Positions 3,637 to 54,360 of a stretch of 64,000 bases of DNA are shown piece after piece. Source of the stretch: Balanoglossus misakiensis (lineage: Eukaryota; Animalia; Hemichordata); contig CM082594.2 in assembly GCA_040954595.2 (NCBI GenBank), positions 5,813,319-5,877,318 on the forward strand. Direction: 5' to 3'. Position 1 is the first letter of the stretch. Each line of letters opens with the position of its first letter. The translations under genes were made by a program, and so were the position numbers. The notes under the pieces were generated by a model. The model was not told the DNA's origin. It saw nothing but the letters and a program-made list of their open reading frames with translations, and ran no database searches.

Positions 3637-3767
3637 TGACGTCATCAGTTATAAGGCCCCTTCCCCCCCCCCCCCCCCCCCAATCTCCCGCCCCAGAAGA
3701 TTTCGCGAACGCTGAGTGAAGACTGGCCTACTTCAAATGTCTAGAAGAACTTAGAGAATACGGAAAG
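3637..3767 (+). promoter_or_regulatory. Candidate promoter and short non-coding leader exon for the receptor exon at 5138
   Basis: Perfect CRE TGACGTCA at 3637-3644, TATAA at 3650-3654, GC-box CCCGCCCC at 3687-3694, and a consensus donor AAG|GTGAGT at 3767/3768. A possible acceptor tttccag ends at 5059, upstream of the ATG at 5138. Confidence 0.4.
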
Positions 3768-5137: not shown

Positions 5138-5939
5138 ATGGAGGCAGTGAAAATGATCGCGGAGCTTCTCTGCTTTGGGTTGCTTTTGTGTCTTGTGCCA
5201 TCTACCTTTCCGGGCTTCTCGGCCAAAACTGCAGCTGGGGATGTTGTTGTGCCAGAGTTTGCCATCGCTGTTCTGGCAGATTTCGCCGAGAACAGGTGGA
5301 ACGCTGACCACCGACTGAACGGCGGCGGCGAATTAGCCGACCGACCCGTCGAGCGCGAAGGTGGTAGCCCGGCCACTGAGATCGACGATCTGGACAGGAT
5401 CGAGTCGGCGTTGCAACTGCCGACCTTGATGTCCAGTCTGGAGTTGGCGCTGGAGGCCGTCGACCGCAGCTTTTCCCCGTCGTTCGCCCTGAAACCGCTG
5501 GTCAACGACACGCAGTGTAACATCTACACAGCCGGCGGGCTGGCCGCGGACCTGCACTTCTTCGGACAGGTGACCGCCTTCTACATCCCCACCTGCCACG
5601 AGACCCCGGGCCACATCTCCCACCTCGTCGGCTACTGGAACCACCCCACCTTCAGCAGCATCTTCTCCGCGGAGACCACACACCGCACGGACTCCTTCAT
5701 CAACTTGGCCAGCTTCGAGAAGCTGGCCGCCGCCGCAGACACCTTCATTTTGCGCTTCGACTGGCAAAAGATAGGAATCCTGCGATGGAATGGGGCGTAT
5801 GTCGCCCTGTCCGACTGCCTCAATGACGTGCACGAGTCACACAACGGCACTGCCAGTAAGCTTAGCATCCTCGAGTCGCACGAACACGAAAACCCATTGG
5901 AAGATTCCCAATTCTTCCAGTTCCTTACATTCCACAGAG
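5138..5939 (+). CDS. First coding exon A of a natriuretic-peptide-receptor / membrane guanylyl cyclase-like protein (signal peptide plus N-terminal part of an ANF_receptor ectodomain), divergent
   Basis: ATG at 5138 (or 5153). Hydrophobic signal peptide LLCFGLLLCLVPSTFPG. Family pattern IAVL...LELALEAV...VNDTQC...AFYIPTC...HLVGYWNHP...FILRFDWQKIGIL. Strong GC3 bias. Donor AG|GTAAGC at 5939/5940, phase 1. Confidence 0.8.
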
Positions 5940-8803
5940 GTAAGCTCATTTACTCTGCTTCCCTCTGGCTGCGATTTATAAAACAAAACACATTACCGAA
6001 GTAATGTCAAACAAAAATTTAGGGAAACGGTGACCATCTCAGTTTTCCCTGCTGCGTCGTTTCGAAAAACACCGACCCACCCCCAGTAATTGCTGCCTAG
6101 TCCCTTTATTTCATTGTGAATTTCTCTCCTTGCGCCTCCCCTGCCGGAGAGCGCCCTCTCTTGTCACCGATTGTCACTTCTCTTCACAGGGAAGTCACGT
6201 ACCTCACTGTATATGATCACAACTGATGGTGTAGTTTCAACCTCGGTATTATTCCACTTTTCTCAAATGGTCTTATCCCCATCATTCTTTAGTGTATCTC
6301 CGTCTTGTTTCGGAAGATTGTACATGTATGGGTCAAAACCCACTCTCTTTATGGAGAATTTCATCGATGCTACGAGTCTATTAATTTTGTGTGTGTGAGG
6401 TTTTACAGTGCGTTTCAAGGACACCAACAAAACCTTTGCTTCGACGAACATTATCCCATTTACGTTACATTTAGGTTTTATGACAGTGGCAGTGGTTTTG
6501 GCTCATAGAGCAGCGAGACGTGCTTATGTTTCGTAGACAGATTTATAGAAATGGTGAATCATATAGAATAAGATGGATCCTGGTTGACTAATGTCTTGGA
6601 AGTCCGAAATGGTTTCATCATTTCTTTATTACCTTTGTCGGATTTTCTTTACAAAGTTATCCATTTTAGGGGTTCTTTATCATCTGGGTTTAGCCAAGCT
6701 TTGCGAGAAAGATGCGCGTTTATGGAGAGTAATGATGGTTTATGAGCAGTGAGGGCGTACTGACAGTAAAAACATTAGCGAAGATCTCCAATTCCTCATC
6801 TTAAGAAACAAATTCGCCTCTGGCCATAACAGTCCTATATTTAGTAATGGAACTGAACTTAATATAGTGAAATTCTAAGGAAAGGGATTAATAAAATATC
6901 AGTATGGGCAGATTTCTATAATGAAAAGAAATAATGCAGTCAATTTAGTGATTAAACAACACTGAGTACGGTATAAGTAACGGTTAGTGTGTTGTGTGAC
7001 AGCGCGTACGTGGACTATCTAGGCCTGGAAATATGACTGTTTTTCCTCTCAGTACTTCAGATTGAATATGGACGCACGTACTGCAAAATGCACACTTTTC
7101 ATCCCAGCTTCTTGGCGCTGAAAAAAAAAATTCGATACATATTGGTGTTATTAATATATCGCTGAATTGATTGATCATATTTACTTTCCAAATTCCGGTT
7201 AATGATATATATTCGGAAGCAAGCAATCAGCAATTTAAGTGGGCAGTCCGGTCTGTATCGAAGATGAATTGCAAACCTGCTGTTATATTGAGTCTGGTCA
7301 AAAATACAGTTTACAACAACTGTGTGAGTGATGTGTGAGACCAAGGTTATTACCCATCACAAGCCGACTATAACATTCATGTTGGTATCCAAATGACAGT
7401 TTAAAAATTCATACCTAAATCTTTCATGTGCAGTGTCGTATAGTCTGGATTATAACCAAGTAGGTAATTTCATGGATTTTCCTTCGAAATGGTTGCAGTT
7501 CATAGATGTTGCTTCGCTACTTTTATATTGTTTCACATGACTTCAGAATGAATTTTTCATGATCATACTCTGAGTCGTTCCCGACGACCGACCGACCTGC
7601 AAGTGTCTAGCGCGCAGCCACAACCGCAGGACAAGTGTCGGGAGTCATTTAATAGGTTCATTTAGAATTCCCATCCCAGGACAATAATCGAGTGCCAATC
7701 GAAATAAGCTTAAATGAGCCGTAACTACCCAATCTTTACAGCAGTAGCGCATGGTCGGTGCGAGTGTCTTTCGGGTATTAGGCCTAAATGTACAAAGTCG
7801 CCATATTGTGGCCATGTTCATAATCTCGGTGGATTTTCTGATTGTCTTCACGACTCTTGATCTGTTTTCAAACATGGTTTCCATCAGAGACAGTAGAGAT
7901 AATGTCTAAGCTTCCACCAACTGCTCGACGTAAGGTTATCCTTTTTCACTAAGACAGTGTGTCTTATGGTCCGACTGACTCAAATGTACAATCATATAAT
8001 AATGTATTTCTTGAAACGCCGACATTCTTTGAGTGAATATATTGTTTAATATATAGGCATTATAAATAGCAAAACAGCGCCAGCTTTTGAGCAAAATCCC
8101 CCCAGACTATCCCCTTCATTTCAATTCACAATCAGTACATTGCAAGATGTTTCCAGTGCGTCTGATGACAGAACAGTCATATCATCCAACCGAATTATTC
8201 CTCGTTCTTCTCCCATTAGAGAAATCGGTGCTTGTTTTTTAAAAGTTCATATGTTCCATCTCCTGGTGGGGAGTTGTCCCATCTGACCGCAGGTCACATA
8301 ATAGCGTTATTTCTTGAACCATCGTGCACCTTGCATTTCATTACATGTACATATCTCCTGTAAGTGGAAACATTTTGAGCTATGATATAAATATCATTGG
8401 TTGTAGATTTGTCAAAAGACATTTTTATCTTGGCTATGTTCTGTTTTAACCTGAATACTATTAATCTGCTCTATCGTATGCAATTTATTAGAATTGTAGA
8501 AAATAGGTCTATCGTCGTTTCGTTGTTTCGCCGTGTCGCTGTTTCATGTTTCGCCCATTCATTGTGTGAAGCCATCAATTACTGGGGTGTATTAATGATC
8601 GGATTAGGAGGCAATGAGCTGTTATATAAATTCACCCGTCTGCTGCAACAGCGGCGTCGACTTTGCAGGGCGTAAATTTGCGTTGATTTATTCATTAAAT
8701 TAGACCTTATTATCGTGCAAGGATGCACGTTTGTTGAAGGGCACTGTACTCGGCGATACAAAGCAAGGAGATCGTGGTTCGAATTTTGATCTGACACCAC
8801 ACA

Positions 8804-9016
8804 CATACATACATACATACATACATACATACATACATACATACATACATACATACATACATACATACATACATACATACATACATACATACAAACATAC
8901 GTACATACATACATACATGCATACATACATACATACATACATACATACATACATACATACATACATACATACATACATACATACATACATACATACATAC
9001 ATACATACATACATAC
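8804..9016. repeat. (CATA)n microsatellite, about 53 units
   Basis: Direct inspection; three interrupted units. Confidence 0.98.
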
Positions 9017-11015
9017 GACGGATAAAACGAGTATCAGATGTCAGCAAATTATCAAAGTTGACAAGCTCTGCTTATATGTGCATGCTTCCTATTTCAACCC
9101 CTTTACAGACAGAGTGTCTGTTTACCACTAGAAATGCTTTGACATCCGATGCACCATCGGTCTCCACAGTCACGATCGCCAGGGCTGCAACCTCGCCACC
9201 CAATTCCAGCAGAAAGTAATTTGACATCTCACGCTTCCTGGCAACGAATACAAAACAGGGGAGGTGCCATTAGAGAGAGATCCGATGTGCGTGAAGTTGG
9301 CATTAAGCAAGAATGATGATCGCCGTTAAATAAACAAGAATAATTGACTGCGTTCGGGTGCTGTAATTGCCTCTCTTCGCGAATAAAGCCCGGAGTGAGC
9401 ATGACGAAATGAAATTAACACACGGCTAGCGAGTTCAGGAGATTGTCTCTTTTTCATCAAAGCGGAAAAACTCTGTAGTTCGAAGGGTTTATTTTGAGGG
9501 GGCTGGTTGGCCAGCCATGTACATTTTCATAGTTGATCAGAAGAGTGCTGAATATTTGACCTATGACCTTTGAAATATGGATAACGCTGATTGTAATTAT
9601 GTTGCATTGAAGGTTACACAAAATGTATACAATTTTCAGGTTTATAAAAATAGAGAAAGGACATTGGATGTAGCTGGCGACAATTAGGCTTATGTTCACC
9701 ATGTGTTACAATATAAATACATTTTATTTTTTCATTTACATGCAGTGATAACTGTTATCACAGCAGAGGATTTCGCGCTCTATTAGCGCTCGCTATTATG
9801 TAGACGGCTTCGATGAGTTGGCTCGTGTTGTGTCTAGAATGTATGCACAGTTTGGAATGCCGTATTCTGATTTCATGTCTTCCAAAGCGCGGCGCCACAA
9901 CCTTATAGATTTTCCATCAAAAATCAATGTATCAAGTTCGGATGCCACATATTCCTCCAAAAATAAACAGTTCACTCGCTTAGCGATTTAGTGATAAACC
10001 GAAAAAAAAAACATTATTTAGGGTTAACCCCCCCCCCCCTCCCCCACACACACACACACATTTCAGAATCATAATCTCTCTACCACAGTGACAGTTGTAG
10101 CATAGCATTTCACCCACGATTCCGTACAAGCAAAGCTCCATGATTTATCATTGTTATCGAATACAATCAAACGTAGGTCTAAGATTAATTTCCTTTGGGA
10201 AACAAACATACAATAGGCAAGGAAGCTCCGCATTGAAGCCATGTTTTTGCGGATCTTGATATTTATGTCGTCCGTGCCACAAAAAATCATCAGTTGACAC
10301 ACGAAAGGAATGGTCCTTTTACAGAGCAGAGTATTTCTTGCAAACTATTCTGCAGCACTTTTGCATAAATCACTTGACTAACCTGCGCTTTTCTTTCTGG
10401 CAAACATGTGCATCCGATATCATGCCCTGCGTGTGCATGCAGCGTGAATGGCATATACATGTAGATTGGTTTTGCTATGCAATCCCATAAGGTTGACCGC
10501 AGAGCGGGATAGCTCTTCTATTCCAGGCAGTATGACTGCATAAGTCCCAGCCGGATATGGGCAGAGCATTTTCACAATTTCCATCTGCACTTTATGTTGA
10601 GTGACTGATGTCATTTTGGAGCAGGTTTCTTAAAAGCACATGGCCTTTCCTCTCAGCCTGATATCGCCGGCGGAGCTCAAAAACCAGTTTTTGCGAGGTT
10701 TGCATGAACCAGATTTGGTTGACCGGCTACGTTTAATGACAATTATTGTTTGCATGTATATCATGCGATTGTGTCGTCCACTTTGGATCCTGTCGTGTAA
10801 TTTTCTGCATGGCTCCCTGAAATGTCATTTTCCGCATGACGTGAAGTCTTTAAATGTTCACTTCAGCTCAAACGATCTTCCAACGTTGACCAACCTTTGA
10901 GTAGCGGGTGATACGGTGTGGGTTAACCCGTACATGCTGTCAAAATGTACTCTAAAGAAACCTTGAAGATTCAAATATCCAAATGTAAGGTTTTTTCTTG
11001 TGTTGTGTGAGCTGT

Positions 11016-11081
<66 letters not shown>
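11016..11081. repeat. (ATC)n microsatellite, about 22 units
   Basis: Direct inspection. Confidence 0.98.
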
Positions 11082-11082
<1 letters not shown>

Positions 11083-11906
11083 CTGGCAAAACAACTATTA
11101 TTGACACGAATTTCACCAGTAGCTTCAAATCGGCGACTGGATAAGCTATAAAACTAAAAAAAGCCGAAACAGCGATCATGGGAAATGAAAGAAAAAGAAA
11201 ATGATGGACAAATCCTCTATAAAGTTACTACCTAAAAGAGGCTTGAAGTGCACTTAGGAAACGCTATACCCGGATTACAGCCGCTATAAAGGCCAATCTG
11301 CTTTTATATGTTCGTCGGTGCACCCTTCGTACCTTTTAATGTTGACAGGCGACTCACGACGCGGATGTTTTTGATGATAGCGATGGCAGAGGTCTAACAA
11401 TGATGCATTAGCACAGATCCCGCGCCGAGGAAGTGCTTAAGGCAATTTATATCATCGCCAGCGACGCCAGAATTAAAAGTAACGCGGCAATATAACAGGC
11501 TTTTGTTAGCATGGAAATGTTTGACCCATAATTTATTGCAGATTTAACCTAGCCTTCAATTATTCAAATGGGGCACACCGTAAAACGGCCTGTTTTTGAT
11601 GCAGTGTTGTCGTTCGCACAAAGAACTCGTTATCAATACATAAAGACGAAAATTTTGGCAGCCGATGATTGTAATCCGAAGATTTATAGAGTTGTCTTTT
11701 TTCAGAAATCGCAAGGTGCGAATATATAGAAATCTGATATCAAATTCCATTTTTCGGATCAAAGATTGATTTATCCCCGAAAATTTTCCCTTATTAATAT
11801 TCATAAAGATACAGTGAAATTTAGTCGTGTAATGGAATTATATTAATTATTAGTGAAAGGATGCGCGTGCAGCTAGAAGGACACAATCTGAATTGTTACA
11901 CGTTAA

Positions 11907-12077
11907 AGGTATACTGTCACCTCTCTATATATATCCAAAAGGGCATGTCTAAGTGTTCCACTGACTTTGTGGTGGCGCACTTTTTTCGTGGATGCCACGA
12001 ACTGAAAATCTGTGGTTGGCTATATTTAAATTTTCCATGGCAACAGTGGTTAAATTTGCATAGGTGGCCGTGTACCT
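11907..12077. mobile_element. Kolobok-type MITE (TTAA target duplication, AGG termini)
   Basis: TTAA|AGGTATACTGTCACCT ... AGGTGGCCGTGTACCT|TTAA. Homologous to 41872-42056 in the opposite orientation. Confidence 0.8.
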
Positions 12078-14002
12078 TTAAGCAGGCGAAATTCTGCAGA
12101 GGGGCATGCATACTGGTCGAATGGCAGATTTATTGAAATTCTTCGGTCGAAGCAGTACAGGGAGCTGCACGGCAATTTCTGTGGGTCATCTTTCCCACCC
12201 ATCAAATTATACGTTTGCAGTGCCAACAAGTTGCTTATCTGTCACCTCGGGATGACAACGACACGCCCTGTTGGGAATGTGACCTGAAGTCCTGAATAAA
12301 ATTCATGCTGATGTCACCACCATCTTGCCAAATAAATCACCGACACACCATTACCTCGGAATGACACGCTCCTTTTATGATCGATGTGTTTTTAGAGAGA
12401 GACTTTACGACGCTCTATAAAATTACGAAAAAGCGCCCACGAAACACTTTCGCTTCAGAACAATGTGTTATGATTTATTTAGGCGGAAATTGTGTGTTTT
12501 CATGTTAAATGCAGACAGGCCCACACCTTCTGTCAAAACACTCGCCAAGAGCCAAGTAGAAGCAGAACAAACGATTGAAATTTAAAAGGAGACCCGATAA
12601 AACCCCTTTCTCACGCTCCCTTAGTAAAACAAGTTACAGCCCATGATTAAGGTACGCACATTGCGGCAGACGTTAATCGCAGATGGTGCAAGTGATCCAA
12701 TTAACAAAGCTGACAACAGTAATAGTTTGTTGTTTAATCTGAGAATTGTGATTGAACAGATTCATACGAGGCCTGGACACGCGATTGGCAATACGACGTG
12801 AACGGACTATTTCCGAGCGAAAAGCTGTGAAAATAAAACACACACTTGTTCCGATATCACCCACGATGAAACTGCGGTCGCGATGACACGTTTCTAAAAC
12901 GTGCGCCGTGAATGTTTAAAAAGCCTGGCGATTTTGACATATCACTGTTTACTTGTGCCATGAGCGATGTTCCTTTTACGATAAGATAGAATGCGTGGCT
13001 CTGCTGATACCTAAATCATTGCATTTTGAAAACTGAACAGCCCGTGATTATATTAAAATCTACTTAATTTACGACCTGCAATATGTTAACATGAAACGTG
13101 TTAGTGATCTCTGGAATTAACCCCTTATTGAACAGGATGTCATATTATTCAAATCTGAACAGTTTCCTTGTGAAGTCCTTGATGATTACACATTTTACAT
13201 TAGTTGGACTAAAATACTGTTTTGCTCATTAAGAGATTGTATGTTTGTTCATGTATGAGAAAATCAGGAAATTGGATTATACGGATAATTTTCACATATT
13301 CGTTCAAATAAATACCATATGTTTGGTTGCACTTCAAAATATGGCAGCGAATATAAAACACATGTACCACAGAAATCAGTGGTATTGCGTGTGGGCTCGG
13401 TGACAGCGACACAAAAGCAGTATTGAAACATATACATGTACATGTATACCATTCTGTATAAGACACTTGTAGGCTTAGAATATGCAGTGCTCATCATTTG
13501 AGTGACAAATATGCCACATTTGGACACGACATCTCTAAGTCTTGTTTTTTTTTGGAAGTCAGTGCACATGCAATACGCTGGCGTATGAACCACGCATCAT
13601 ATAGAATAAGTGTGCTTGCCTCCAGGGAGGGGTTTAGGATGTCTACTGAAGAACCTGAGAAAGGTTCCCCTTTAATTCATTTCTCTTACACTAGACAGTC
13701 CGATGCCCGAGGCGCGTGTTAAATTGCGCTAAGATTTCACTGGAATCCAGACGGAATTAGGTGAAATAATAGACGGAGACTCGCTCTGATATGATTAAAA
13801 CAGCATCTCTCGCACTGGTTTGTAAAATTGGCCAGAACAAGCAATGTGATAAGTCTCGGTGTTTAGTCTCCTTCAGCCCAGAGGGGGAGATATGTCGTAA
13901 TGCATAATGGATGTGGTCGTAAAAAGAATACATATATAGAAGGACGGGCAGGCAGGTAGAGATAAGCAAAGAAAACAAATTCACAAAGGCACGCATTCAA
14001 TC

Positions 14003-14125
14003 ATCTCTTATTTATACATGACCATATACGGTTAAAAGGGCGTGTCCAAGTCTTCGAATGATCACGTGATTGGCTATGTCTGATCTTTCCATGATAGCTG
14101 TGACTAAATTTGCATAGGTGACCGC
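14003..14125. mobile_element. Degenerate, internally deleted copy of the Kolobok-type MITE family
   Basis: Shares ccatatacggttaaaagggcgtgtccaag...gattggctat...tttccatgatagctgtgactaaatttgcataggtgacc with 11907-12077. Confidence 0.6.
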
Positions 14126-15595
14126 ATTATCATGGTATAAAAGTGTTACCGTGAGACAAACCAATAAGCGTACAGATATAGGAACCTGACGTTCACTGGC
14201 GCAGGTAAAAGACCCCTAAGATGGAAAGTGGACGACTTTTCGTTGCTTATCAAGTATTCCACACTGCATCTTAAGAGTGATTGCGTCATGCTGACACTTT
14301 GTAAACAATCCGTGACGGTTTACAGTTAACGCGAAAAAAAGTATAACAATTGTCCGACGGCCATTCGCAGAAAACACGCGCGAAGCAGAGGGGGATACCC
14401 ATCGCTCGAGGCTTAACAAAAGAAGGAAAATCAGATTCCAATGGCACAGCCTCCGCTGAAATATTTACAAATTGAAACTTATTTGATTGTTGAACACGGC
14501 GTCGTGTAAAATAGCGATTCACGCCTTCACCAATTGCTATTCTTTGCGATTTCGCATGTGACAAAACAATTCGTCAACCTCACACCCCGAAACGACAGGT
14601 GGTGTGATTTTTTTCATATCGGCGATTCCCGCCACGTCCGAAGTCTGAAACAGAAACGTGAAATTCACGCTTGTGAAACAGCTCATACAGCGTTTCCAGT
14701 GTCTGTCTCTATCTACAGCATCTCAAATCGCTCGCGGGGTAGTTCTTCGTCCAATACGACTTGTCGTTGTGTGTCGGGAAGGCGAATTGAATTAAATTGT
14801 GCACATTTGAGTTAAGTGGCGAGCAGTCCTTGAGTACGTTGTTTGCCTTGACAATTATGATCACCGTTTAATTCAACCGAGATCCCAGTATAGTGTCACT
14901 GTCACTCGAGAGAACGCTATTCTGAAATCTCACCGCTCCTTACCTTCAAAGGAAGAGGAAACTGATAGAAATTGGTTCCATATACATTGGCTTCTTGAAA
15001 AGAAGCGTTCTACTTTGATTAAAGCGTAGCCGCAGCAATCATAGTATAATGCAATTGGAGAATGAAATTAGATGGCATCATCATGTTATAGATCTTGACA
15101 TAAAAGCGCGGAAGTCGTTTGAATTTATTCCATACTGAATATCGTAATTGAAACGCACACAATTCTCTTCTTTCCGTTTTCCTTCGTACATATCCATAAA
15201 AATCGCTTAGTTTAGATTATACCTTGAAGATATACAATGTAGGTCTTTATGCAAATTTAGCCTCAGGTAACGTGGAACGTTGAGGTTCAGCCAATCACAT
15301 ATTTTTGCTCATTTGAATATTTGTCACGGGTTTGAGTTCATAACACGGACGACGCGCATGAAATCGACAAAAACAAATTATGGTAGTAAGGTATCACTTT
15401 TTGTCATAAATATTTTAGCTCTAAAGTTCCAAAAATAGATTACTGGTGATTCACTTGAGTGATAACTTAGATGAGGATTAGTAAGATGTCAACTCAAAAT
15501 AACCTTGCCTGAAGCGACGAAAAGTATCTTTCTTATTCAATGTCAGATTTTTCAGATGAAGTCTTGATCTCTCGGACTGCACTCTCTGTTTGTGT

Positions 15596-15597
<2 letters not shown>

Positions 15598-15642
<45 letters not shown>

Positions 15643-15799
15643 CGTGCGTACTGATTGACTGACTATGATTGTACATGTATGTATGTATGTATGTATGTAT
15701 GTATGTATGTATGTATGTATGTATGTATGTATGTATGTATGTATGTATGTATGTATGTATGTACATGTATGTGTATGTATATGTGTGTGCGTATGTATG
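15598..15799. repeat. Compound (GT)n plus (TATG)n microsatellite
   Basis: (GT)n at 15598-15638 and (ATGT)n at about 15675-15799. Confidence 0.97.
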
Positions 15800-16939
15800 A
15801 ATGCTATCCACCTGTAACTATGTCATAACCTACTTTTTAATGGCAAAACTCTGCCGATGTCAGAAAGATCTCTTTGCCGCGGGTCCTTTGTAATACGTTC
15901 CCAGCAACCGATCCTAAAGAGAAGTTAATTAAAAACACATTGCAGAAGTCGGGGAAATGGTTTCACCAGAGGAGTATGTTTAACATTTTCAAAGCGTCGA
16001 TTATCGAGAATCAACCCCTGCGTTTTACTTGTCGCATTTCAAATTATATTTTAAATTGCCTTTTTGCAGAGTTTTTCATCTCTGTGGCGCGTATCAATCT
16101 AGCGCGTGGCGTTATTTGGTGCAATCATCGGTGAAAGATGAATGTTAAAGTGCCGTGAACGCTCGATTATTGTTATTTCTCTCTTTCTGATAGTGGTACT
16201 CATGATTCGACCCACACTGTGTAAACCACTCGCCCATTTCCTCACTACCCCATATTTGAGATGTCTGCTACAATAATACGTAGCATGTTTCATATTCGTG
16301 CGGAGAAACGTGAAGGTGACTGCCATAAACGAAATAATGACGTCATTTCGAATCAATCTTATCTTACCACACTGCTATTTTCAGCTGTTTTGATAAACGA
16401 CATTCTATAACTGTAAACACTTTGTGACTAACAATTTCACTGGGATTGTAAATACGATGCGTAGTTATCTGTTTAGGTATTGGTTTCCAGTAACTAACAA
16501 TCCACGTTACACGTAAAGAAGAAATCAACGCGGGTCATTTACTAAACCTGTTTCAGAGTGACTCACAGGAGCCAATTAAAGTGATCAACACTAAACATAC
16601 GCCAAGAAAACAACCCGACCTTTATCATGCTTAGTTGAGGGAAAATGATTGATTTTAATACACTTTGATATACTACTCGTCATTGAAATGAAATATTGTT
16701 GACGTTATTACCATGACCTTGGACGTCGTTTGAAGGTCAGGTTATGAGGAAGAAACAGCTAATACAGTTTGAAGAGGAGAATTTAATTAGAAAGATGCCT
16801 TATCCTGGTGAGAGGCTTGTCTTCTCGAAGTTTCAGTGCGGCGGGTGGTGATATTTTTTTCACCAAATGAGAGTCCATTCAATTTGTATAGCGCGTGGAT
16901 TTTGGCGTATAAACCATGCTGATTTTGAAATTATGGGTA

Positions 16940-17110
16940 TAAGGTATAACTTATGTATACTATAGCCAAATCTACTATGAAAAGTTGAGATCCAACAAAT
17001 CACGGATTTTCGTTCTGCTGGCCACGCGAAAAAAGAGCGTTGCTACATCGTCATTAGTTGACATGGGCAAGATCTTTTAACCATATATGGGCATATGTAA
17101 ATTAGAGTCA
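16940..17110. mobile_element. Degenerate copy of the Kolobok-type MITE family
   Basis: gagatccaacaaatcacggatttt...ggccacgcgaaaaaagagcg...ttttaaccatatatgggcatatgtaaattagag aligns with the interior of 41872-42056. Confidence 0.6.
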
Positions 17111-20100: not shown

Positions 20101-22342
20101 CAGCTTTATATAGATATAACAATATTATTTGGAATGCGTATGCCCTATGGAATAAATGCGGATTACACCGTCCGAGTGAAATATAGACAAGTTCCACTCA
20201 ATCTGTTTCCATCTGTAATAATTTGCAACAGCCACACTGCTGGTATCGCCGCTCCCCATCGTCCCGTAGGCGAATGCAACTTTAGGGCCTGTATTGATGT
20301 GATAAGAATGAACACTGTAATTACGGGTAAGCGCCTCCCACACTGAAATGCATGAACGGCCGATTTTTATAGCCTGGTAGACTCTTCTTAATTTACCAAC
20401 GAAAAAAAAACGTCATTGGCCTTTAACAGGTTCGAAGATATTCGCATGCATTGCACCCAGAAAGTTAAGAACCTCAATGTTTTCACATAATTTGATCGAA
20501 AATTATGTACCGTTCGTTTTTTTTAAATTCCCCAAAGAAAATCGTATATCAAAGTACTTTGTATAAATTACCAATATTTGCAATTTGTAATTCATTAACC
20601 CTGTGACAACACCCTGACTTAAGAGAATCACTGAATGTACGTTCTTATTAAGAGATACTGGCATACTTCTTCTCCGTTTGAAAATAGTTCCATGAAGCTT
20701 AAATTTGGATACGATTGACAGGTTTAAATGACTAATTTTTCTGACAACCTGCCCAGGAGATTACCAGTAGACAAAACGTAATGAAAAGGCCACCCAAAAA
20801 CGTACGTTTCAATTATCATGTAGATTTTGGATTTTCTCATCGCTGCACCCATATCGACTCAAAAATGCAGGTTGGCCTTTTCAATTACTACCGCGCTTCC
20901 AATTAGATGCATCCCCAGGGAAATGTTGCCAAATATAGCTTTTCAGGAAAGGTCGACATGTTTTGGGCTTTATTTTCCTGTTATTTTCACATTTGTCCCT
21001 CCCAGGAAAGGTTATAACCTACAGTGTCTGGCTCGCTGAAATTGTATCATGCCGCCATATTGCACGTAGGAACAATATGCAAATTAGTGAAGGCAGTAAA
21101 TTATTCACATTCATCCAGCCAATCAGTAGATGACCATTTTTGGCTTTTTCTGGATTTACTTTATCTACCGCTTCTGTGAGACGCGTCTTAAAAAAATCCA
21201 TACATTTAACTGAAACCGATTAAATTCTTTTAAACCACTCGATAACCCCTTGCATTTTCTAATTTATGTGGTGTAAATGCCACGTTGTATTTTGCAATTG
21301 GAATCTAGTTCCCTTGCGTCCTATTTCTCTTCTTGAAGGACAACACAGATCGTAAAACAAGGTGAAAATACAGCCTTTTGAGCCTGACGATTCAATGTGA
21401 GATATGACTTGGGATTTCTTTGTTAGCGTGCCTCTGAGAAATATAAGTTGGAATGTCATTATTTCAAGTAATTTTGCTTATTAAAAGAAGTGTTGGCATG
21501 AACTTGTAAAGAACCTACCACCAGCAACGTCAAAAGATTGCGATATTCTTTCCCGAAATTCTGATGCGTTCCAGAAAGAATCTCCCCCATATCGGAGCTT
21601 CTTCTCAACAAGAATCCCAGCTTAAGCGTACAGATTGGCCAGGATTGTGTCGGAGATTTTGAAATGATTGCATTGGGATATGGAATCCATTCCATGAAAT
21701 TGTAGGCAAATTGAAGTCATAGCTCCCTATAAAGAAATAATTGCAGAGAGAAATCGCTAATACCCTATTTCATAGGATACATTCATACTTATCCGAATGA
21801 ATCACCAAGTTGTAAGGAAGCTTATATTTATCTGATCTTACAAAAGGAGAAAGACGACATATTTATTGATTTATTTGGGGGGCTTGTGTTGTGTCAACTA
21901 ATGAGGACAATATAACTGCAGTCGCGCACTCTAGTGTGAGCAAACTTTCACACCCAACCCCTCATAATATTTTATAACTTTTCGAAGTATATATTTGCAT
22001 ATCAGTCGAGAAATTATTAATGACAATAGCTACGCTGTTGAATAAGAATGAATTTGTAACCAGATGATGTCGTGCATGCATTCTGATTATGTGTTAGCGT
22101 CCTTGTATATATATAACTGCATATTGGACGTTTCTGCAACGCGTTGTCAATAGGAACGCTGTGTATAGCAGGCGTGTCGTGTTTCAACGTGCAAACACCA
22201 TCGATCACTGCACAAAAAAATATTTTATGCTATGTATCGTATTTACAGACTTCTTATCTGTTCGTCAATATATGTAGATGTTACTCGGGCAATTTCAAAA
22301 AGTCAAGTGCCACCAGTATCGATACTCATGGTAAACAACCAA

Positions 22343-22436
22343 TTATGCAAATTTAGCCACAGCTACCATGGAAAGGTGACGTCTTTTAACCATATATGGG
22401 AGTATGTAAATTAGAGGTGATGGTATCCTTTTTAAC
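22343..22436. mobile_element. Internally deleted copy of the Kolobok-type MITE family
   Basis: atgcaaatttagccacagctaccatgg joined to ttttaaccatatatgggagtatgtaaattagaggtgatggtatcctttttaa. Confidence 0.6.
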
Positions 22437-25400
22437 TCGCCAGTCACGAAAGTGATTTGCCCAGACGCCAGAAGTTATTTTGTAGTGTACATATACGTAA
22501 TTGACTAATACTTGGGGGGACAAAACTGCATCAAGTTAGACAATATTGATCAGAAATATCGACCACTTTCTGTCGTTCATTATATCTGCCAGTTCGTGTG
22601 TGTGTCACCTGTGCGATGGGCATTTGCATCAGACAGTTGAATATGCATAATGGATGGAAGACTTAATACGTAATAAAGTGCCATAGAATCCCCTTGATTA
22701 CGTAAACAGAAACCACCTCCGCACGGTTTACTGCCACTTAATCACATTTGCGAAGAATCACTATAAGACCCGGTGCCAGTGGACGTGTGCGTGTTGACAA
22801 GTTGTGGTTGTTTGAGGTGAGAATGACTCATTCTGGCGTGTGTTGATGATTTGTTTACACCATGTACGCCTATCATGGCCAGAAATGCTGGGAATCTGAA
22901 AGGTGTGTATAGACGCAAATTAGTGCCGCGGATTAATTAATTAGGCCACCCTCTCGCGAGGGCCAATAAACCATCATTAACGACCAGAGTATAGTCTTTC
23001 ATAACAATAAGAGGTGTCAACATAAAATATAAATCAACTTAATTTATTAATATCGGTCTTTCCTCTGGGGGCACGACTACGCATAGTTTACTAGACATGT
23101 ATACAAAACGGTGACGTAATATATGATTTTTCGCTCATTGCGAGATCTCGCGAGACTTAGTCAATTACCGTAGCAACGAGTTAGTAGCCATGTGATACAA
23201 TCAAGCTTTGTATAAAACTAGAAGAGGGGCAGAGTTTAACAAAAATGTAATGTTAGTGCTGTTTAACACGTTGGACCAGGTGTTGTTTGTCTTGTGCCAC
23301 ATGAGAATGTTCTTCCATATAAACTGCCAAGCCACGCGGGATCTCGCTGGGTCTCATGGAGTTAAGAAAATGGTCTATTGTTGTATTCTGTGGTGTGCAT
23401 GTATATTTATTGCCTAGCGAGCTGTTGCAAGTGTACCTTATAGTCAGTCCTTTTGTTTAAGAGTGCGTCGAATTTGTTAACCTTTGATGATAAGCAGAGC
23501 ATGGTCTCCTCACATAAATCATTTTACTCGCTTTGTATCACCTCACCACAAGTTTCAGTAATTTTCTTTTCTAATTAATAATCCTACGCGACAAGAATAG
23601 CATGGCAGCATTGGGTAATTAATTACCCTAAATAATCTACGACCCTTGACCCATCTACCAAGTACACCACCAACGCATTGTCTTCTAATCAATGTCACGA
23701 TGACATTATTATCATTTACTTGTCAATGAACTGTTTTTATTGCCAAATACTTTCCGTCCACGGCAGTAGACTGGTACCACGGACCCCCATTGCGCTTTCG
23801 TGGAAGGCTGACCCCATTTAGCCAGATATGATAAATAGCATCGTTGCTGAAAAAAAATGATATCCTGTATTACTGGGAAATGTTTTTCTATTCAAGAGTA
23901 GAATATCTCAGCAATTTCATGTAATTTATTTTTATTTCTCTGCCTGATACCTCTGGGAAATCAGAGAGTTCTGTTTTGACATTTTACCCAATTGATTTTT
24001 GTATTGGTTGTTACGGCAACCGTCTGTGTGACTAAATAAACCTACATTTATTTTACTTTTTGTATTGGGAGATACACTCACTGTAGTTAATATATGTAGA
24101 TGTTGCAGCGGACACAGTTTGTAAATGTCCATGAAATCCTCCAATATATTAGGATAAGTTAGAAAAATGTACGCTCTGTGTGTTTTGTGAAAACGGTGAT
24201 CGTCAGAAAAACTCGGAGCAAATTCCAGTTTAATCAATAAACCAAGACAACTAGTTGGTAGTCTAGACATTTATCACGAAAATCCCCTACTGGCAGGGAG
24301 ACATGCACGAACCAGTTCATCTCTCGGCATTCTCGTCACCAAAACGACACTTGATATGTACGTAGGTTTCGCTACTTATTCGATCAGAACCCATTTTCCA
24401 ATGAACTTTTCATTTAGTCATGAGAGAGTCTGTCTCTCTGTCTAGCAGTCTGGCGTCCGTATTCCTTCCATCCGTTCATCATTGTCCTGCCCGCTAGTTA
24501 GCTAGCTATAGCTTGTCAGCCAGATGACTGGTGAAACATTTTAGGTTTCACTTGTGAAATATTTTAATCGTGCCTTTCTCGCCAAAACGTATCTGTCAAA
24601 GATAACCACTCAAGTTCTGTTAATTAAACCGATTTCCACACCCCTGCCTTCATGTTTATATGAGTAGATCCATATTCCGGTAATATATAATATTGTGTTA
24701 ACACAGTGAGGACTACCTTATGGCTGAAATAGGGCCATATGTCTATTTCTTGCCAGCATCAATAAAGTGTTTGAATTCGAGACTAAAGCAAATTTACACG
24801 TCGACAAACCATTTCGGCGTCCACGTACCGTCTTACCCGTGTTGCTCCATCATTCTTAATAAGTTGAATCAACAGTACCCCGAACTGTTAGATAAAAAGG
24901 TCGAGTACCCCATTTATCTATCGCTAATAACCGTGTGTTAATGGTAATGCAATGACTATATAACACGACATGTTAACGCAATTGCTTCTCCGGGGGAGTG
25001 TAATTAACCAAAATAATACTTTCTGCCAAACCCTGGGCACAATGTGTGTTCATCGCTCATAGTGACGGAATCAATCAGCCGTATTAATATGCGTTACTCG
25101 AATTAATGAAAATCCCAATGAGGTCGTTGCATATCCATCACAAAATAATAATAAGATAATTACGGAATGTTTGTTTTTTTTTAGCAGAAAATGTGATTAA
25201 CTTGAGCTCGTTATAGGGTGTACTTTGGAATAAAATTAAACAAGCTTCATTTTGGTCGTATCATTATGTTTTGATGAACTATAAAGGCACTGAGATATTC
25301 TTAGGCGGAATTGGGTGTAAACAAATTACACAAGAGCGTCAGTGACCTGGAAAGCGGACAGGACTTCAAATTAGATTCAGTATACACCATCGGTGTCATG

Positions 25401-28400
25401 CCATAAACGCCAGTAGAGTACATGCAGTAGCCGTTTATAGATATGATAGAACTGTTGCAAGAATTATTTGCAGATGGTGAGAACCAATTGACATAATGTC
25501 CAGAAGGTCTGGCCTGTACTGCCTATGACTATGAGTGAACGATACAACGTTTCTCTTTAACCTCATATTCTTGCGATGCATGCAAAGTTACCAGTTTATT
25601 AATTTGCAAGGGTAGTGGTGTTGTAGTCTGTTAGCCAATCACTCATTTCCACTTGGGTGGCCGTGTGGAAATGGTGCGCCACCGCACAGGCATTAGAAGA
25701 CTCAGATACGCACAATTTGACTATATATGGACACTGTCGTGATTGTGTCAGTGGTTATATTAGATTAAGCGACGAATGTTTAATCACATAGATTTTAGCC
25801 GTCAGCAAAACAACCCCAAGAAATATAGCGATTTCAGTTTATTGGCATGTATTCAATTGCGAGTGCCTTTACATGTGACCAACTTAATATGTCAAGGTGG
25901 TGCTTTAAAATAGTTACTCATATATGTAGCGGGTATTAGCTTTATTACTGGTAGGCGTCCAAACACTGTCGTCAACCATGACACTCCCTTCAGTCAAACG
26001 ATAGTTTGGTGCCACCGGGCATGAATAAATAAACATCCAGGTTTTTTTCTCGCAATTCTTGATTAAAAAAATAAATATTGGCAGCATCAACCCGACTAGT
26101 GTTGTTGTACCGCGCATCAATCTTCCTAATCAAACCTGTAATTGTGTACGGGGGAAATTGGCTTAAATGGTGATATGGAAACCGCTAGTGCTTAGTCAGG
26201 GAACTGTGAGGGGGAACCATGGAAATTGACCTCGCTACATCGCAACGGATATTTGCGCCATTCACCCGCAGTCTACCTGGTGCGTGATAAACATACAATC
26301 CCGTACGAGGCATGAGGTTTATAACGCGGCAACTTCTCTGTATTTTTGACGTTTAAAGCTCCAGTAACTCTACATTTTGGCCGTTGTTTCAGTATTTTCT
26401 CCCATGTATCAATTCCGGACTTGAATTCAATTTTCAACAATTAAAAGGCCTATTACTACGACGAAAAACCAAATACTGAGCAATTATTTATGATTCACAG
26501 AGTAGAACAAGAAACCACAGTCTGTGTACGTGTGGTGATTGATGCATAAAGCCAACGCCAATCAGCGTCTCTTAACCATATAAGGCCGAGAAGCGTGTTA
26601 TGGGTGGTCGTGCGCCATGTTCATTAAACACCATCCGCTGCCCATGTTAACAGAAGTGCTTCCGAGGGTTGCAACAGTTTGGTTTCAGCGCACTGAGGGT
26701 TTACGCAAACTGATCACGAAGACAGGAAGCGCAAAGACGGATTTCTCAGCCGCAGCTATATGTAGGAAACCTTTTCTTTGTACATGCTAAAGGCTACTCA
26801 CGGTACTACAGGAATATTATGAAACACACCTTGTTAATACTAATGGTCCCGCATTAATGCTAGGAATCTCCCCAGGGCAGAGAGGGCGGTTTTATGCTCG
26901 GCCATTAAGTTCTGAAGGCGTGAAAGTTTGTCGTCTCCTGCGTTTCCATTGGAGACTCTGGCGTCAGTTTTGGTGCCCTTGACTGACAACTCAGCGGATG
27001 CAGAGACATTGTGACGTCACCGGATTCAGCTTAAAGGGACAGTAACCGTAAAGTTATATATTTGTCAGAAGTTTCATTCGTTTACAACTTCTTTTCCTTC
27101 AGCTGCTTCTGGTCCACTTTCATAAGTCGGTTTATTAATAGAACAGTCCTATTAGATGAATTGTACTACTTCGTTTCCTGCACTTTGTGCTATTCCAAGT
27201 CCGATTTTTTGCATAACACATTTCCTTCACTAAAGTTATTCCCTTCCTAGTTACAAACCATTCGGTTTACCAGTTAACTGTATAGTTTCTTTGTTTTAAA
27301 CTGTAAGAACACACGCACACAAAATACTGACCGGTTTTACGAGCTTATTTAACTGTGTGTTCTATGTAGCAATGTCACGACTACAGGCGTATTTGAAAAG
27401 CCGCACACTGAGAATTTCAATATCCTTCTGCGTCCTTGCAGGCACTCAAAACGAGAATTTTACACTTGACTTGTACACAGGAAAAAAATTCTGAAGGAGT
27501 AATTGCTAGTCACGGCCACCGATCTGTAATACATCGTCATTTTCGATAGACCTGAACGCTACACGGTGTAATTTGTTTTCAAATTATCGTCCGTCTAACA
27601 CTACTCGATGGATTGCTCGAAATAAAAAGTTCGGGTCTATTGGCCCAAACTCAAGCTGACGCACTCCCCTCTGCGGAATAAGCGCACACATTCCGCTTAA
27701 TTGTACCTCGCGGGTGTATTTCAGCATGGAGCCCATTCGCCTGCTCGCCATGCGGCGTACCGCGGTCATTCCGCCGCCACGCGAGTATAAAACTAACAAC
27801 CAATTTAGGTTAACTGCCTTCGGAGAGAGAGACGCGTCCCAATTTATGCGGACTGCATCGTGTGTAGCCCTGATTTGGAGCTTGTCCGATTAGCCGCGAG
27901 AGCTTGATGACCGGCAGATTGTATTATAATGGTGATAAAACGTGAATCTGATACTGGATCGTGTGTCACACTAACCGTTACACGCCAGCTTATTTTCAGA
28001 GTATACAGTATAGTGAATTTCAAGGTGGGCAAATACCTCTTACCGTGCCTGGCGTCGCATGGGTTCTGGCAGGGCATGTTGATTTTTTTAAAGGCTGCCC
28101 ATCTGCAGCGATGTCGCCACGCAAACACGCGGGAGTATTCATTCAGACGCCAAAGAAGCTTGCTGATAGATAATTTTTAATACACCAGCGGTACACTTAA
28201 AACTTCTTCATCATCCGAAAATGGATAGTTGCATAGAAGATACATGTACTAGTATTATAACCAATCATCTAAAACCACAACGTACAGAAAAGATACCCAC
28301 CGCACCTGAATGACGCAACACAGGGCCTTGCAATTTCTTGGAGAATCAATATCAATGTTTATTGGTGGAAACTTTCGAACAACATCTGGGATCTGCCATG

Positions 28401-31339
28401 CCACATTTACACCAAAGCCCGACGGCCTTCGAAAGTTGCTACCACCAATCACAGGCACTCTTTCAACCATGCATTTACGAAAACAAATTACTTTCATGAA
28501 AACACCTGCGACCCCACCTCAATTACCACATAAGTAGCGCCTATACCACCTGTGCTACCGAACTACATGTATGTGCTTTGGATCAGTCTGAGAACCCACA
28601 GTTGTCTGATGATCGCTGTACATGTACATGTACATGTAGGTCCGCTAATGTTGGCCTTGGACCCGAGTCTTCTGAGTTTGGATTCTCTGCCAGATTACAG
28701 GCCACCTGCAATTCTTACCGTCCTTGACAGCACCTTGACTTTCACTGACAATGTACCTGTTTTGTAACCCCATCTCCCGAATTCAATGCGGATGCTCTCT
28801 CAACTGCGGCTGGTTTTCTGATCTCAGCCATCCTTGACATCAATGGCGGACAACAGAATATCACAAAACAATAATAACAAATTAATATATGTGACATTGA
28901 GAGAATATTATCGCCAAAAACGGCAAAAATCACTGCTGTTTGTTCCTGTAACTTGTATATGGTTCATTGCTGCACCCTTTGCTAACATCTTCCCGACCAA
29001 CTCATCATTGTAATTCAAAGCGACGCAGGTGCCGGCTTAAGTGAGCGTATGTATGATTTTAATTAATTCCAAGATGAGGGACACAAAAGTCTGAGATTTA
29101 TTGACACTGTCCTAGAAGCTTTCACAAATCGAATGTGAATAGTTTTTTTCAGGCGAATAAAAATATCGAGTTACGGAGGGCTGTTCATGTTGGGATTACG
29201 GGTTTGAATCATGGGCATTAAACAAATTCTAATTGACAGCCTGGAATAAAAGGAAACCAAAAAAGTAATGGAAAAGTTATAATGTACCATTCATGTGTAT
29301 ATTTTTATTCTATCGGATTTCAGATCTGCTAAACTTATTCTGATTATCTGCCGCCAATTTGAAAGTACCAAGCGCGGTCAGAGTGCAAATCAAAATTCCG
29401 TTTTGACAAAATAATCATTAAGCGATATTTGTAGTTGATAATTGGAAAAAATACAAACCGCTCATGTACAGATTTTGGCGTAATCATTTACAACATGTTC
29501 ACCGAAGGCAGTCCTAGACTGTCTGTGCGTATGACGGTTTGCCTAGAGCATCTTTCAAATCTGTCGTGGTCTGTGTGAATAGAGATGTCAGATATTTAGT
29601 CTTACTGTACCCTGTCACGGGTTTATCTGGGTATCTGTTGCCATCACGTTTTTTATCCTAACCGTCTCTGCGCCATATTTATGCAAATTGCTAGTAAAAC
29701 AGTGTATGGCTTGCGCTCAATCCAGTTTCAGTTCTCAGAGATCTGTCTATTGACGACGTAATCGCAACTTTTAAAGCTGATATAGCAGCAAGAAATTGAA
29801 ATACTGCATTGTCTTTCTTATGTACCTTCACACTCCGTGTGAGGCCGATTTCTAATTTTGGTGGCAAAAAGTCGTGTCCGTATAGCATGTGTGCTGTGAT
29901 TAAGTTATAAACATTTTGCATATGAAATCACGTTGGCCTTCAGTAACGCGAGCCGAGCGTCTTACGTAAAATGCTACTTTCGTTTTGATGATTTCCTGGA
30001 CGAGAATGCAATTATCTTTATTACGTAGCCTTCTTCTCATCGGTTTTCTACGCAATACAGATGCACATTTAACAGTCACATGCATTGTGGGTTAAACAGT
30101 TGCTTTAGTCATCCACCGTCGAAAGCAGGTAATTCGTCGAAAATCACGTTTCGGCACCCCTGGGACCAGGCTCCTTGTCTATCAAAAGGCGAGCTCGAGG
30201 AAAATTGATTATGCATATTTTCTAAATAAGAATTGGGATGATCTAAGCGTAAAGTGCTGAGTATATAGCGTTTTGAGTTGTGTTAAAAGCAGACATTTTT
30301 CACGGCGATGGGTACAGTGAATGCATGCGCCGACCTCGCTGATTTAGAATTGTTTTAGCGCATCGATGTTGATGCCCTTTCGCAAGCAGGCAAAGACAAA
30401 GTCAAACACAAAAAGCGCAGAGATTTTCCGTAGAGTTATTATAAAAAAGCAGTTTTTATCCTTGGCAAACTGACAATGATCCTCGGTAATCCTGCTAAAC
30501 TGTCGTTTCAACTATGATGAACGTGATGCCATCACGCGTGACGTCAAATTGGCATCGGATGTACGTGTTAAAATTAATCTGGCAGGCTCTTTCGTATAGT
30601 AGTACATGTAGCAGCATGAAGGTGAAACGCTCAGGCTTGTTGGCACAGCTTGTATGTCGCTCCCAGTCAGGAGAGCGCTTCAAGGCAAAACACCGCTTGC
30701 TAATTAGTGATGGATTCAAGATAATACAGAGGCAACCATAGAATGTCATTGACCGGCTTAAATATGAACATATACTGAACTACACCTTGAAGGACATACG
30801 GGTTTCTCTTGGTGAAGGAACTGTCAGAGATATTTGTTCTTCAAAAGTGTGTCTTGAAAGGGTTAGTCTTTTCGGTGGCACGTTAGAGTGATGTAACTGC
30901 ATTTTGAGGTCATTGAAATAATATTTCTCGTGATAAACACGCTTTATTTTCAGTGTGACTATTTCAGGGTTGTGGCTGGGTTAGAACCGTTTAGGGAGTA
31001 CCCTCACAATGTATTGTAATACTTAGAACACGTGAGTGTGTGCCGTGCATAATGCGAGCTTCCCCTTTTACGCATTAGCATAAATTACCCAGCTCGCCAG
31101 ACCATCGCGGTGTGCAATTTATCTCCGTTAAACCATATACGCCTACACGCATGTTGACGTTATCATTAGCCTGCGCACACCGCGACAGCCGTTTGCTCGA
31201 GACTCATCGTTTTGCTGCAGTCGATAATGGCCTTCGCATAACTGTGGAAAGTTGCCACGGGGAAACGGCATTATTAACCCGGCACCGTTTATTTGTTTCC
31301 CGTCTGCTGGTGATGCAGCGAGCGGCGTTGCGTTGGATT

Positions 31340-31346
31340 TATATAA
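31340..31346 (+). promoter_or_regulatory. Candidate TATA box of receptor exon B, within a CpG-rich upstream region
   Basis: TATATAA about 190 nt upstream of the ATG at 31532. CpG-rich from about 31050 to 32210, with palindromes CCGACGTCGG (31398-31407) and TGACGCGTCA (31430-31439). Confidence 0.45.
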
Positions 31347-31531
31347 GCGCCGTCAACCGTCTACTGCGTCAAGTCGCCCGCTATTGGAGTGGTGTAGCCG
31401 ACGTCGGAAGGATTGGGCTCGTTTGAAGTTGACGCGTCATCTCTGGAAATTGCGTAACGAAGCCCCCGTCGGCCCCGGTTGGTATAACTACGTACACCAG
31501 GCTACAGTTCGGATCATACACATACAGCACG

Positions 31532-32213
31532 ATGGTGTCGTTGTTACACTGTGTGTTTTCTACAGTGGTGTTGCTCACTCTGCAAGTCAGGGTTTCTGGT
31601 CGCGACTTCAAACTGCTCGTTCTGTTGGACACGGCGAAAGAGGACGTCCCGTCGCTGTACAACCTGGAGCAGGTGATGCCGGCCGTGGAGATCGCCACCA
31701 AGAAGATCAACAACGACCCGAACCTCCTGCCCGACGACCGCATCCAGCTGATGCTCAACGTCACGGCCTGCGGCGAGTTCCTCTACGCCAGCATCCTGCT
31801 GACCGACGCCTGGATGAGCTGGGAGCCGGACGGCCTGATCGGGCCGGCGTGCTGGGCGCCCATGCAGATCTCCGGCGTCCTCTTCGGCCACTGGAACCTG
31901 CCCATCGTGTCCGGGGCGGCGCCCGACGGCCACCTCAGCAACCGGACCCTCTACCCGACCCTGGTGCGGACGTTCGCCCCGCACGCCAAGCTGGCCGACG
32001 CCTGCCTCTCCTTCCTCGAGTACTTCGGGGTCGGGCTGCTCGGCATGCTGTACAACAAGGACGAGATGAGCTACATCGTCGCCTACGCCCTGTACAACGG
32101 CCTGGTGAAAAACCCAAACATCACCTACAAGGAAAATTCCCTGAAAGCGTACGAGAGTCGCGACATGGTGAAAATGGACAACACGCTCGAGGACATGTCT
32201 ATGCTGGCTCGCA
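31532..32213 (+). CDS. First coding exon B of a natriuretic-peptide-receptor / membrane guanylyl cyclase-like protein (signal peptide plus N-terminal part of an ANF_receptor ectodomain)
   Basis: Signal peptide MVSLLHCVFSTVVLLTLQVRVSG. Canonical motifs MPAVEIATKKINNDPNLLP...TAC...LIGPAC...GHWNLPIVSG...LSNRTLYPTLVRTF...FLEYFG. Strong GC3 bias. Donor A|GTAAGT at 32213/32214, phase 1 (…LAR-I). Confidence 0.9.
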
Positions 32214-32857
32214 GTAAGTTGACCCAAAATAGATTCTCCCCCCTCCCTTCCTTCCTCTACCTTAAACATCCCCTGAAGTAAAAAGGGTAAATCCCATACA
32301 CTGTCTTCATTCGACAATGCAATATTCCACGCGTGCTTTACTTAATCATGTTTGAAACCGCAGATGTTTTTAACCGAATCACGTCATATGGAGGTCATCT
32401 CTGCCAAATTCATTAAAATCTCTTTCGGAATTATCGCGATACGTAGATTTACACTTATGAAGATGCAGGAAACAGTATTAATAGAATTTCTGACTCAAGG
32501 GTTGTAACAACTCGTACCGGAATCTGCCAATTGCGGCTGCATTAATGTCAAAAGTGTCAGCGTAGATCTGTATACCATTATACGCTGGTTGGTCCTTTGC
32601 AATTCTCTAGAAAATTGCACCCGTAGGGATTTAGTCAGGGCGAAGAAAAAGCAATCAAGATGGAGCCTCGGCGCAAGAAACCACAATCTTCTGTGGGATT
32701 TGTCTCAGATGTGCATCATTCGCATTCACAATTTTGATCGATGATAATGTTTGGTAGACCGTCTCTACTTTCTTCGACCAAAGTACAAAACACCGACTCG
32801 AGCACGGCGTGCATGTGCGACGGGCCCTGGTTATAAACGCACCATTCTGAGTCTTAA

Positions 32858-32942
32858 CCCTTTCGCCACCATGGTTCAGTCCAAACCTGTTGTTTTCTAT
32901 GTTAAGGTTGGACCTCTATACCGGAAAATGGGGGTGAAAGGG
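32858..32942. mobile_element. piggyBac-type MITE, 85 bp
   Basis: TTAA|CCCTTTCGCCACCAT ... ATGGGGGTGAAAGGG|TTAA (15-bp TIR, 2 mismatches, CCC/GGG termini, TTAA duplication). Confidence 0.85.

Positions 32943-54326: not shown

Positions 54327-54360
<34 letters not shown>

Follow-up and report, generated by a model that had tools for sequence, protein, structure and literature searches.

Two paralogous first coding exons point to a putative variable-first-exon receptor guanylyl cyclase gene in the acorn worm Balanoglossus misakiensis

A stretch of 64,000 nucleotides from the hemichordate Balanoglossus misakiensis (GenBank assembly GCA_040954595.2, contig CM082594.2, positions 5,813,319 to 5,877,318 of the forward strand; called the window below, with positions counted from its first letter) holds two first coding exons, A and B, of natriuretic-peptide-type receptor guanylyl cyclases, and no exon for the rest of such a receptor. 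The question raised by this locus is whether the two exons serve one receptor gene or two. An initial annotation had proposed an array of variable first exons, and the same answer is favored here: A and B probably belong to a variable-first-exon receptor guanylyl cyclase gene in which each is spliced to one shared body beyond the window. The two parts of this answer differ in strength. That B belongs to such an array is very likely and is strongly supported by orthology, whereas the joining of A to the same body as B, which is proposed from the position of A, is only rather likely. The elements that bear on the question are as follows.

5138..5939, plus strand: exon A, first coding exon; ATG at 5138, 267 open codons and the additional base G5939, phase 1
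5940..5945, plus strand: donor of exon A, AG/GTAAGC
5940..31531, plus strand: interval between A and B, 25.6 kb without a receptor exon of any kind, the putative intron of A-type transcripts
31532..32213, plus strand: exon B, first coding exon; ATG at 31532, 227 codons and the additional base A32213, phase 1
32214..32219, plus strand: donor of exon B, CA/GTAAGT
32214..64000, plus strand: interval after B, 31.8 kb without a receptor exon

A and B are intact, codon-biased paralogous first coding exons with a common phase-1 junction. The coordinates, reading frames, separate start codons and donors given by the initial annotation were all recovered, and both exons encode, as it had claimed, the same N-terminal part of the ANF_receptor fold (Pfam PF01094, 36.1 bits for A and 70.4 bits for B with a cut-off of 25.4); their translations are 24% identical over 190 residues. 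The junction Arg closes both exons, and the donors stand at the homologous codon, both in phase 1 after this Arg, again as had been stated. The junction codon is then predicted to be Val in A (R plus G) and Ile in B (R plus A), the latter being the residue found in the ortholog of B. The donor word of exon A, AGGTAAG, occurs twice on the plus strand of the window. Third-position GC is 0.76 in A, with 0.87-0.98 in codons 91-180, and 0.90 in B, compared with about 0.40 in the surrounding DNA and 0.57 in a neighbouring housekeeping gene, and the chance of so long an open frame, per frame start at the local stop frequency, is 3.5e-7 for A and 3.3e-6 for B. The Cys pair of the membrane-distal lobe, which we take to be Cys60-Cys86 of NPR1, is kept in both exons (Cys127/Cys153 in A, invariant in 15/15 alignment rows, and Cys80/Cys107 in B). 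A profile of 89 homologous N-termini, run against the six frames of the window, gave exactly two matches (E 2e-43 and 7e-12), the next lying at 0.085. Each exon had also been assigned its own signal peptide and promoter; both N-termini are indeed hydrophobic (best 11-residue Kyte-Doolittle value 3.13 in A and 2.46 in B, at most 1.66 later in the sequence), so that signal peptides are predicted from hydrophobicity, and the promoters stay candidates.

Does the window contain the rest of either receptor? With the full-length ortholog from the acorn worm Ptychodera flava, tblastn found only B (E 4e-71), the next match having E 3.0, and a profile of 128 receptor bodies gave a best match of only E 2.5 among 2891 six-frame fragments of the window. 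When Saccoglossus rows were held out, this profile detected 26/27 body pieces of 30 residues, 17/18 of 45 and 30/41 of 20, and therefore about twenty body exons cannot be hidden in the window, which is free of any N. The earlier observation that the 25.6 kb between A and B carry no body exon is thereby borne out: neither the body profile nor the tBLASTn search covering 5940-31531 revealed a downstream exon set for A there. The gap also spans the 31.8 kb after B, and a shared body must therefore lie beyond the window. The locus shows three of the five features that define a variable-first-exon cluster, namely at least two tandem paralogous first exons on one strand, homologous donors of the same phase and no constant exons between them; the decisive feature, common splicing, is seen in the gene models of the ortholog of B.

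For B, the probable body is indicated by its orthologs. When B was compared with longer proteins, a single one of 1831 candidates matched, the NPR1-like isoform X6 of P. flava, with residues 6-232 of which exon B aligns at 54% identity over 98% of its length. Exon B is orthologous to the N-terminal part of P. flava isoforms X2/X6 and of Glandiceps X1: in the quick trees used for exon phylogeny, the X6 exon is the sister of B in both trees, with a Shimodaira-Hasegawa-like approximate likelihood ratio test (SH-aLRT) support of 94, and together with Glandiceps X1 of 96-98. Among metagenome contigs, 92 pattern matches to B yielded no confirmed relative. A search with the post-junction part of X6 returned three P. 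flava clusters at 100% identity, whose members are isoforms X1-X6 of one gene (XP_070536699-704). Among these isoforms there are three N-termini, with identities of 33%, 33% and 46%, all joined to one body that is identical from Arg232, the codon at which exon B ends, and they use the same junction codon and phase as B. The membrane helix and the kinase-homology and cyclase domains are present in this ortholog and must lie beyond the window here. The remaining two P. flava exons group with a Saccoglossus exon in the trees, and since B groups with X6 and Glandiceps X1, the exon duplications are older than these species. The P. flava isoforms are automatic RefSeq models rather than a described system, and no A-like isoform is among them. 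Glandiceps isoforms X2/X3 and a Saccoglossus model (P0007, P0126 and P0008) start 5-12 residues before the junction and have different tails, which suggests that further variable exons are only partly modelled in these genomes.

What would be exchanged by such a choice of first exon may be judged from the vertebrate receptors NPR1, NPR2 and NPR3 (GC-A, GC-B and the clearance receptor; PDB 9bcl, 8tg9, 1dp4 and 1jdn), which have the same ectodomain fold. Vertebrate NPRs have kinase-homology and cyclase domains in common with the ortholog of B, and the exon junction aligns to Arg208/Val209 of mature NPR1. Presumably exon 1 of vertebrate NPR genes ends at this junction as well, which a literature search did not confirm; to our knowledge, each of these genes has one N-terminus. 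In the structures of the receptor for atrial natriuretic peptide (ANP), two monomers enclose a single peptide, and the residues of NPR1 named in the accessible text as contacts of ANP or Dendroaspis natriuretic peptide lie without exception (18/18) at 62-195 (bioRxiv 10.1101/2020.07.09.196394). Since these positions all precede the junction at 208/209, all 18 fall in the swapped part. Natriuretic peptides have been reported only in vertebrates, as far as the accessible part of the source goes (PMC6878697); if invertebrate receptors bind in the same cleft, the variable exon would hold the whole predicted ligand pocket. The swap would cover this pocket, and not merely about half of the ligand-binding domain as had been described.

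The expression of such a gene can be pictured as follows. A transcript begun at A or B would run on to the first body acceptor downstream, and the exons in between would be skipped, first exons having no strong acceptor. The variable exon would supply the first base of the junction codon, giving Val with A and Ile with B. It would also provide the signal peptide, the disulfide of the Cys60-Cys86 type and all mapped ligand-contact positions, and the shared exons would complete both lobes and add the membrane helix, the kinase-homology domain and the cyclase. Each exon would be transcribed from its own predicted promoter, promoter choice would set which peptide raises cyclic GMP (cGMP) in a given cell, and the resulting receptors would differ in their predicted ligand pockets while having one cGMP-producing body in common. 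The caveat raised by the initial annotation, that two very divergent N-terminal halves would have to fold with one C-terminal half, finds an answer in exons of 22-55% identity that share bodies in invertebrate gene models, and in the modelling of A with a shared half described below.

These invertebrate models come from the best 120 of 595 body matches with their cluster members, in which 117 full-length proteins have an N-terminus of 150-320 residues; groups were defined by an identical body start and N-terminal types by less than 60% identity, and the set is a sample, no census, made up nearly entirely of automatic gene models. At least 2 N-terminal types are carried by 19/58 groups with an identical body start, with 2 to 5 types per group within a species and one group of 7 in which three Mytilus species are combined. 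Exons of the same array often share no more than 22-35% of their residues. The groups come from bivalves, gastropods, a nemertean, a starfish and acorn worms, with three genes from P. flava. Of 54 N-terminal types, 25 have Ile and 29 have Val at the junction; Ile or Val in 54/54 is the signature of a phase-1 join, because the first base of the junction codon would come from the variable exon. Two different N-terminal types on 98% identical bodies, probably from two species, are also seen in unannotated oyster proteins (1078-1088 residues; contigs of 4.4-4.7 kb). As these contigs are too short to be genomic, they must be spliced transcripts, and they give the N-terminal swap independent support that is thin but present.

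Three further observations concern such exons in the databases. The first exons of molluscs and the nemertean form two supported clades (98 and 100), each with exons of the same genes, and the array in these animals likely predates their split. One protein of 388 residues (P0136) has two first-exon domains in tandem, with two PF01094 stretches, and is probably a gene model that fuses neighbouring variable exons of such an array. Proteins of 186-274 residues (P0128, P0133, P0134, P0138-P0140, P0142-P0148), some of them named NPR2-like or NPR3-like, end a few residues past the junction Arg and are likely unjoined first exons read through their donors.

Which body, then, does A serve? Its frame is unbroken over 267 codons and strongly codon-biased, the Cys pair is kept, the N-terminus has a signal-like segment, and a consensus donor stands at the homologous codon in the same phase; these features argue for lasting selection on a spliced exon and point to an old, fast-evolving one. 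Since A is an intact exon under selection with a strong donor and no splice partner for 58 kb, and since a phase-compatible exon 2 of B's gene would be expected first downstream, A likely joins the body of B. Modelling is compatible with this. When A and the shared ectodomain half of P. flava were folded as separate chains, the score was 0.81, compared with 0.00 for the best of three controls; the runs agreed in at least 87% of contacts, and the partner had a predicted local distance difference test (pLDDT) value of at least 68. The co-folding mark is reached by 51/78 solved and 2/108 mismatched pairs (39/65 and 2/126 in eukaryotes), and it is to be read with the caveat that halves of one domain with solved relatives tend to pass by likeness and that the partner was a stand-in from another species. 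The result shows compatibility of A with the shared half in the model and does not tell which gene A serves.

A number of points weigh against a common body for A and B. The splice of B to a shared body is read from the gene models of its P. flava ortholog, and in hemichordates there are a number of related receptor genes that apparently lie together on a single scaffold, so that another body is available in principle. The regions upstream of A and B have no promoter word in common beyond what chance gives, 294 and 123 of 300 random windows doing equally well. A has no close relative among longer proteins (0/7992 candidates), only 9 matches of at most 29% identity over long stretches among 50% cluster representatives, and at most 26% identity to the three N-terminal types of P. 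flava. It stands at or near the bottom of the non-members for all 9 exon-class profiles, which makes this classification uninformative, and it has lost the near-invariant Gly before the second Cys. In the quick trees A is the longest branch of the set, with 2.1-3.0 changes per site, and with this long branch approximately unbiased (AU) tests reject A as the sister of B (p 0.030) and also in the main exon clade of the neighbouring, best-sampled gene (p 0.032). They do not reject A in the wider group of B (0.26), in an echinoderm family (0.30) or in a fourth acorn-worm gene (0.35), and with these three placements left, A cannot be placed. Modelled by itself, A gives a structure of low confidence (pLDDT 52.9).

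Further searches describe A in general terms. The closest structural match to the model of A is the NPR1 ectodomain (Z 11.3, root-mean-square deviation 2.4 over 109 residues), in a tie with a bacterial binding protein (Z 10.6); the model contains a low-confidence insert of about 40 residues at residues about 50-92. The ESM Atlas places A only generically in PF01094 (0.94), and phmmer against the PDB found nothing (best E 0.89). The top cluster representative, P0132 (E 1.4e-8), was rejected as compositional; it is a repetitive protein that matches only residues 18-80. By eye, neither A nor the B-type exons have a Cys at the position of NPR1 Cys164, which presumably forms the Cys164-Cys213 bond of NPR1; the exons of the other gene and those of molluscs mostly have this Cys.

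Three other explanations of A have to be compared with the shared body. If A were exon 1 of another receptor guanylyl cyclase gene in the same cluster, its body would lie further downstream and B, itself in an array, would belong to a gene nested in the first intron of A. Such an arrangement would suit the position of A outside the exon clade of B in either tree (in one, weakly with an echinoderm exon family, SH-aLRT 90), the Trp that A keeps, by eye, in a strand where B-type exons have lost it, and the presence in hemichordates of at least 4 such gene types. However, transcripts from A would then have to skip a complete receptor gene on the same strand, including a phase-compatible exon 2 and a gene end; the AU tests reject A among the exons of the neighbour gene and do not reject it with the group of B; and distance alone is no argument where exons of one array are so often dissimilar. 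We regard a nested gene as quite unlikely. An orphan A, either a relic first exon that is no longer spliced or the source of a short secreted product that continues past the donor into the intron for 21 more codons, is unlikely as well. It would account for the missing ortholog, the longest branch, the lost conserved motifs and the 40-residue insert, and the databases do hold many read-through products of such exons with 190-250 residues. These products, however, are most simply explained as read-throughs by gene callers, and half a Venus-flytrap domain, in which helices of both lobes are missing, would, judging from the models, probably not fold as a stand-alone product. The intact frame, codon bias, Cys pair, signal-like segment and consensus donor of A also speak for continued selection on a spliced exon.

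It is very unlikely that A and B are the first exons of two ordinary genes with a single first exon each, from which an assembly or haplotype artefact has removed the body of A. Long simple repeats between the two exons might have favored such an artefact, but the window is without any N, and orthologous gene models of three acorn worms and of many other animals require the same layout.

Starting from the variable-first-exon gene preferred here, a broader and more tentative proposal can be made, namely that a ligand-pocket exon array of this kind is an ancient and widespread means of diversification in invertebrates, in which exon A would supply a rapidly evolving pocket for a peptide or chemical cue particular to its lineage. 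Two ectodomains clamp a single ligand, so that cells expressing two exons would form mixed dimers whose pockets are asymmetric and whose intracellular bodies are identical, and n exons would give n(n+1)/2 receptor specificities. This proposal is doubtful at present.

The closest described systems are the UGT1A, UGT2A, GCNT2 and clustered protocadherin genes and C. elegans gcy-28. The former have tandem large first exons in one frame that are spliced to common constant exons, and each first exon encodes a signal sequence and a recognition domain, like A and B (PMC1885805, accessible part). There, the layouts of Ugt1, Gcnt2 and Ugt2a are described as specific to vertebrates, and guanylyl cyclases are not mentioned (PMC1885805). 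Unlike the first exons of the UGT and protocadherin clusters, A and B end inside one folded domain of a hormone-type receptor, and they are far more divergent (24% identity), unequal in length and without a shared promoter motif. The gene gcy-28 likewise encodes a receptor guanylyl cyclase with isoforms, which reportedly differ in their extracellular N-termini. According to the accessible parts of the papers, isoforms c and d have differing expression and isoform-named promoters (PMC9249223; PMC3842693), and differences in isoform expression are also described elsewhere (PMC5290486; PMC5225109); the comparison with A and B is one of isoform expression. The accessible part of a further paper mentions neither splicing nor exons (PMC1435932). 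No paper describing receptor guanylyl cyclases with variable first exons turned up in a literature search in which most subscription journals were out of reach.

The receptor guanylyl cyclases of invertebrates are mostly orphans. If their whole pocket can be swapped with the first exon, gene counts understate the number of receptors and ligand screens need each first exon, and many short database entries annotated as ANF_receptor fragments would be unjoined variable exons. The locus would then provide, in nature, a swap of single exons with which to deorphanise these receptors, would bear on the origin of the vertebrate natriuretic-peptide pocket in a deuterostome near the chordate root, and would extend the principle of UGT1A and the protocadherins to a hormone-type receptor, with the swap cutting through a single folded domain.

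Where transcription of the two exons might begin is suggested by two candidate regions.

31340..31531, plus strand: GC-rich candidate promoter and leader of B, with TATATAA at 31340 and no ATG upstream of the one at 31532
3637..3767, plus strand: candidate distal promoter and non-coding exon for A; TGACGTCA at 3637, TTATAAG at 3649, donor AAG/GTGAGT at 3768

The TATA-like boxes at 31340 and 3649 are the only promoter signs for B and A, respectively. The candidate non-coding exon upstream of A (about 3680-3767) holds an upstream frame of 5 codons, and a possible weak acceptor lies before 5060 (5035-5066), upstream of exon A. As a lead only, A may thus be the second exon of its transcript, behind this non-coding exon. 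Two copies of an element of about 190 bases, 84% identical, at 3280-3456 and 3944-4137, flank the candidate non-coding exon; they have terminal inverted repeats and are likely a miniature inverted-repeat transposable element. GC-rich non-coding islands are found at 27631-27840, 39331-39600, 54991-55200, 56281-56490 and 62671-62880, some with TATA-like words. They match neither the N-terminal nor the body profile and could possibly be enhancers, further promoters or repeat remnants inside a long first intron.

Upstream of A, the window begins with the end of an unrelated gene.

311..2147, plus strand: last four or more exons of an aspartyl-tRNA synthetase gene, unrelated to the receptor; PF00152 E 2.5e-14; stop at 2145-2147

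We take this class II synthetase to be the aspartyl-tRNA enzyme from its motifs; a further exon of the gene ends near 114. The gene ends at 2147, 3 kb upstream of A, so that A is the first receptor element of the locus, and the synthetase exons at 311-2147 can help to locate exon A by synteny in other genomes. Searches of the window for tRNAs and Rfam families found none. A minisatellite with a 30-base unit in 8 copies occupies 1147-1430 in the last intron of the synthetase gene, and long (ACAT)n, (ATC)n and (ATAC)n arrays are present at 8799, 11016, 15675 and 54210.

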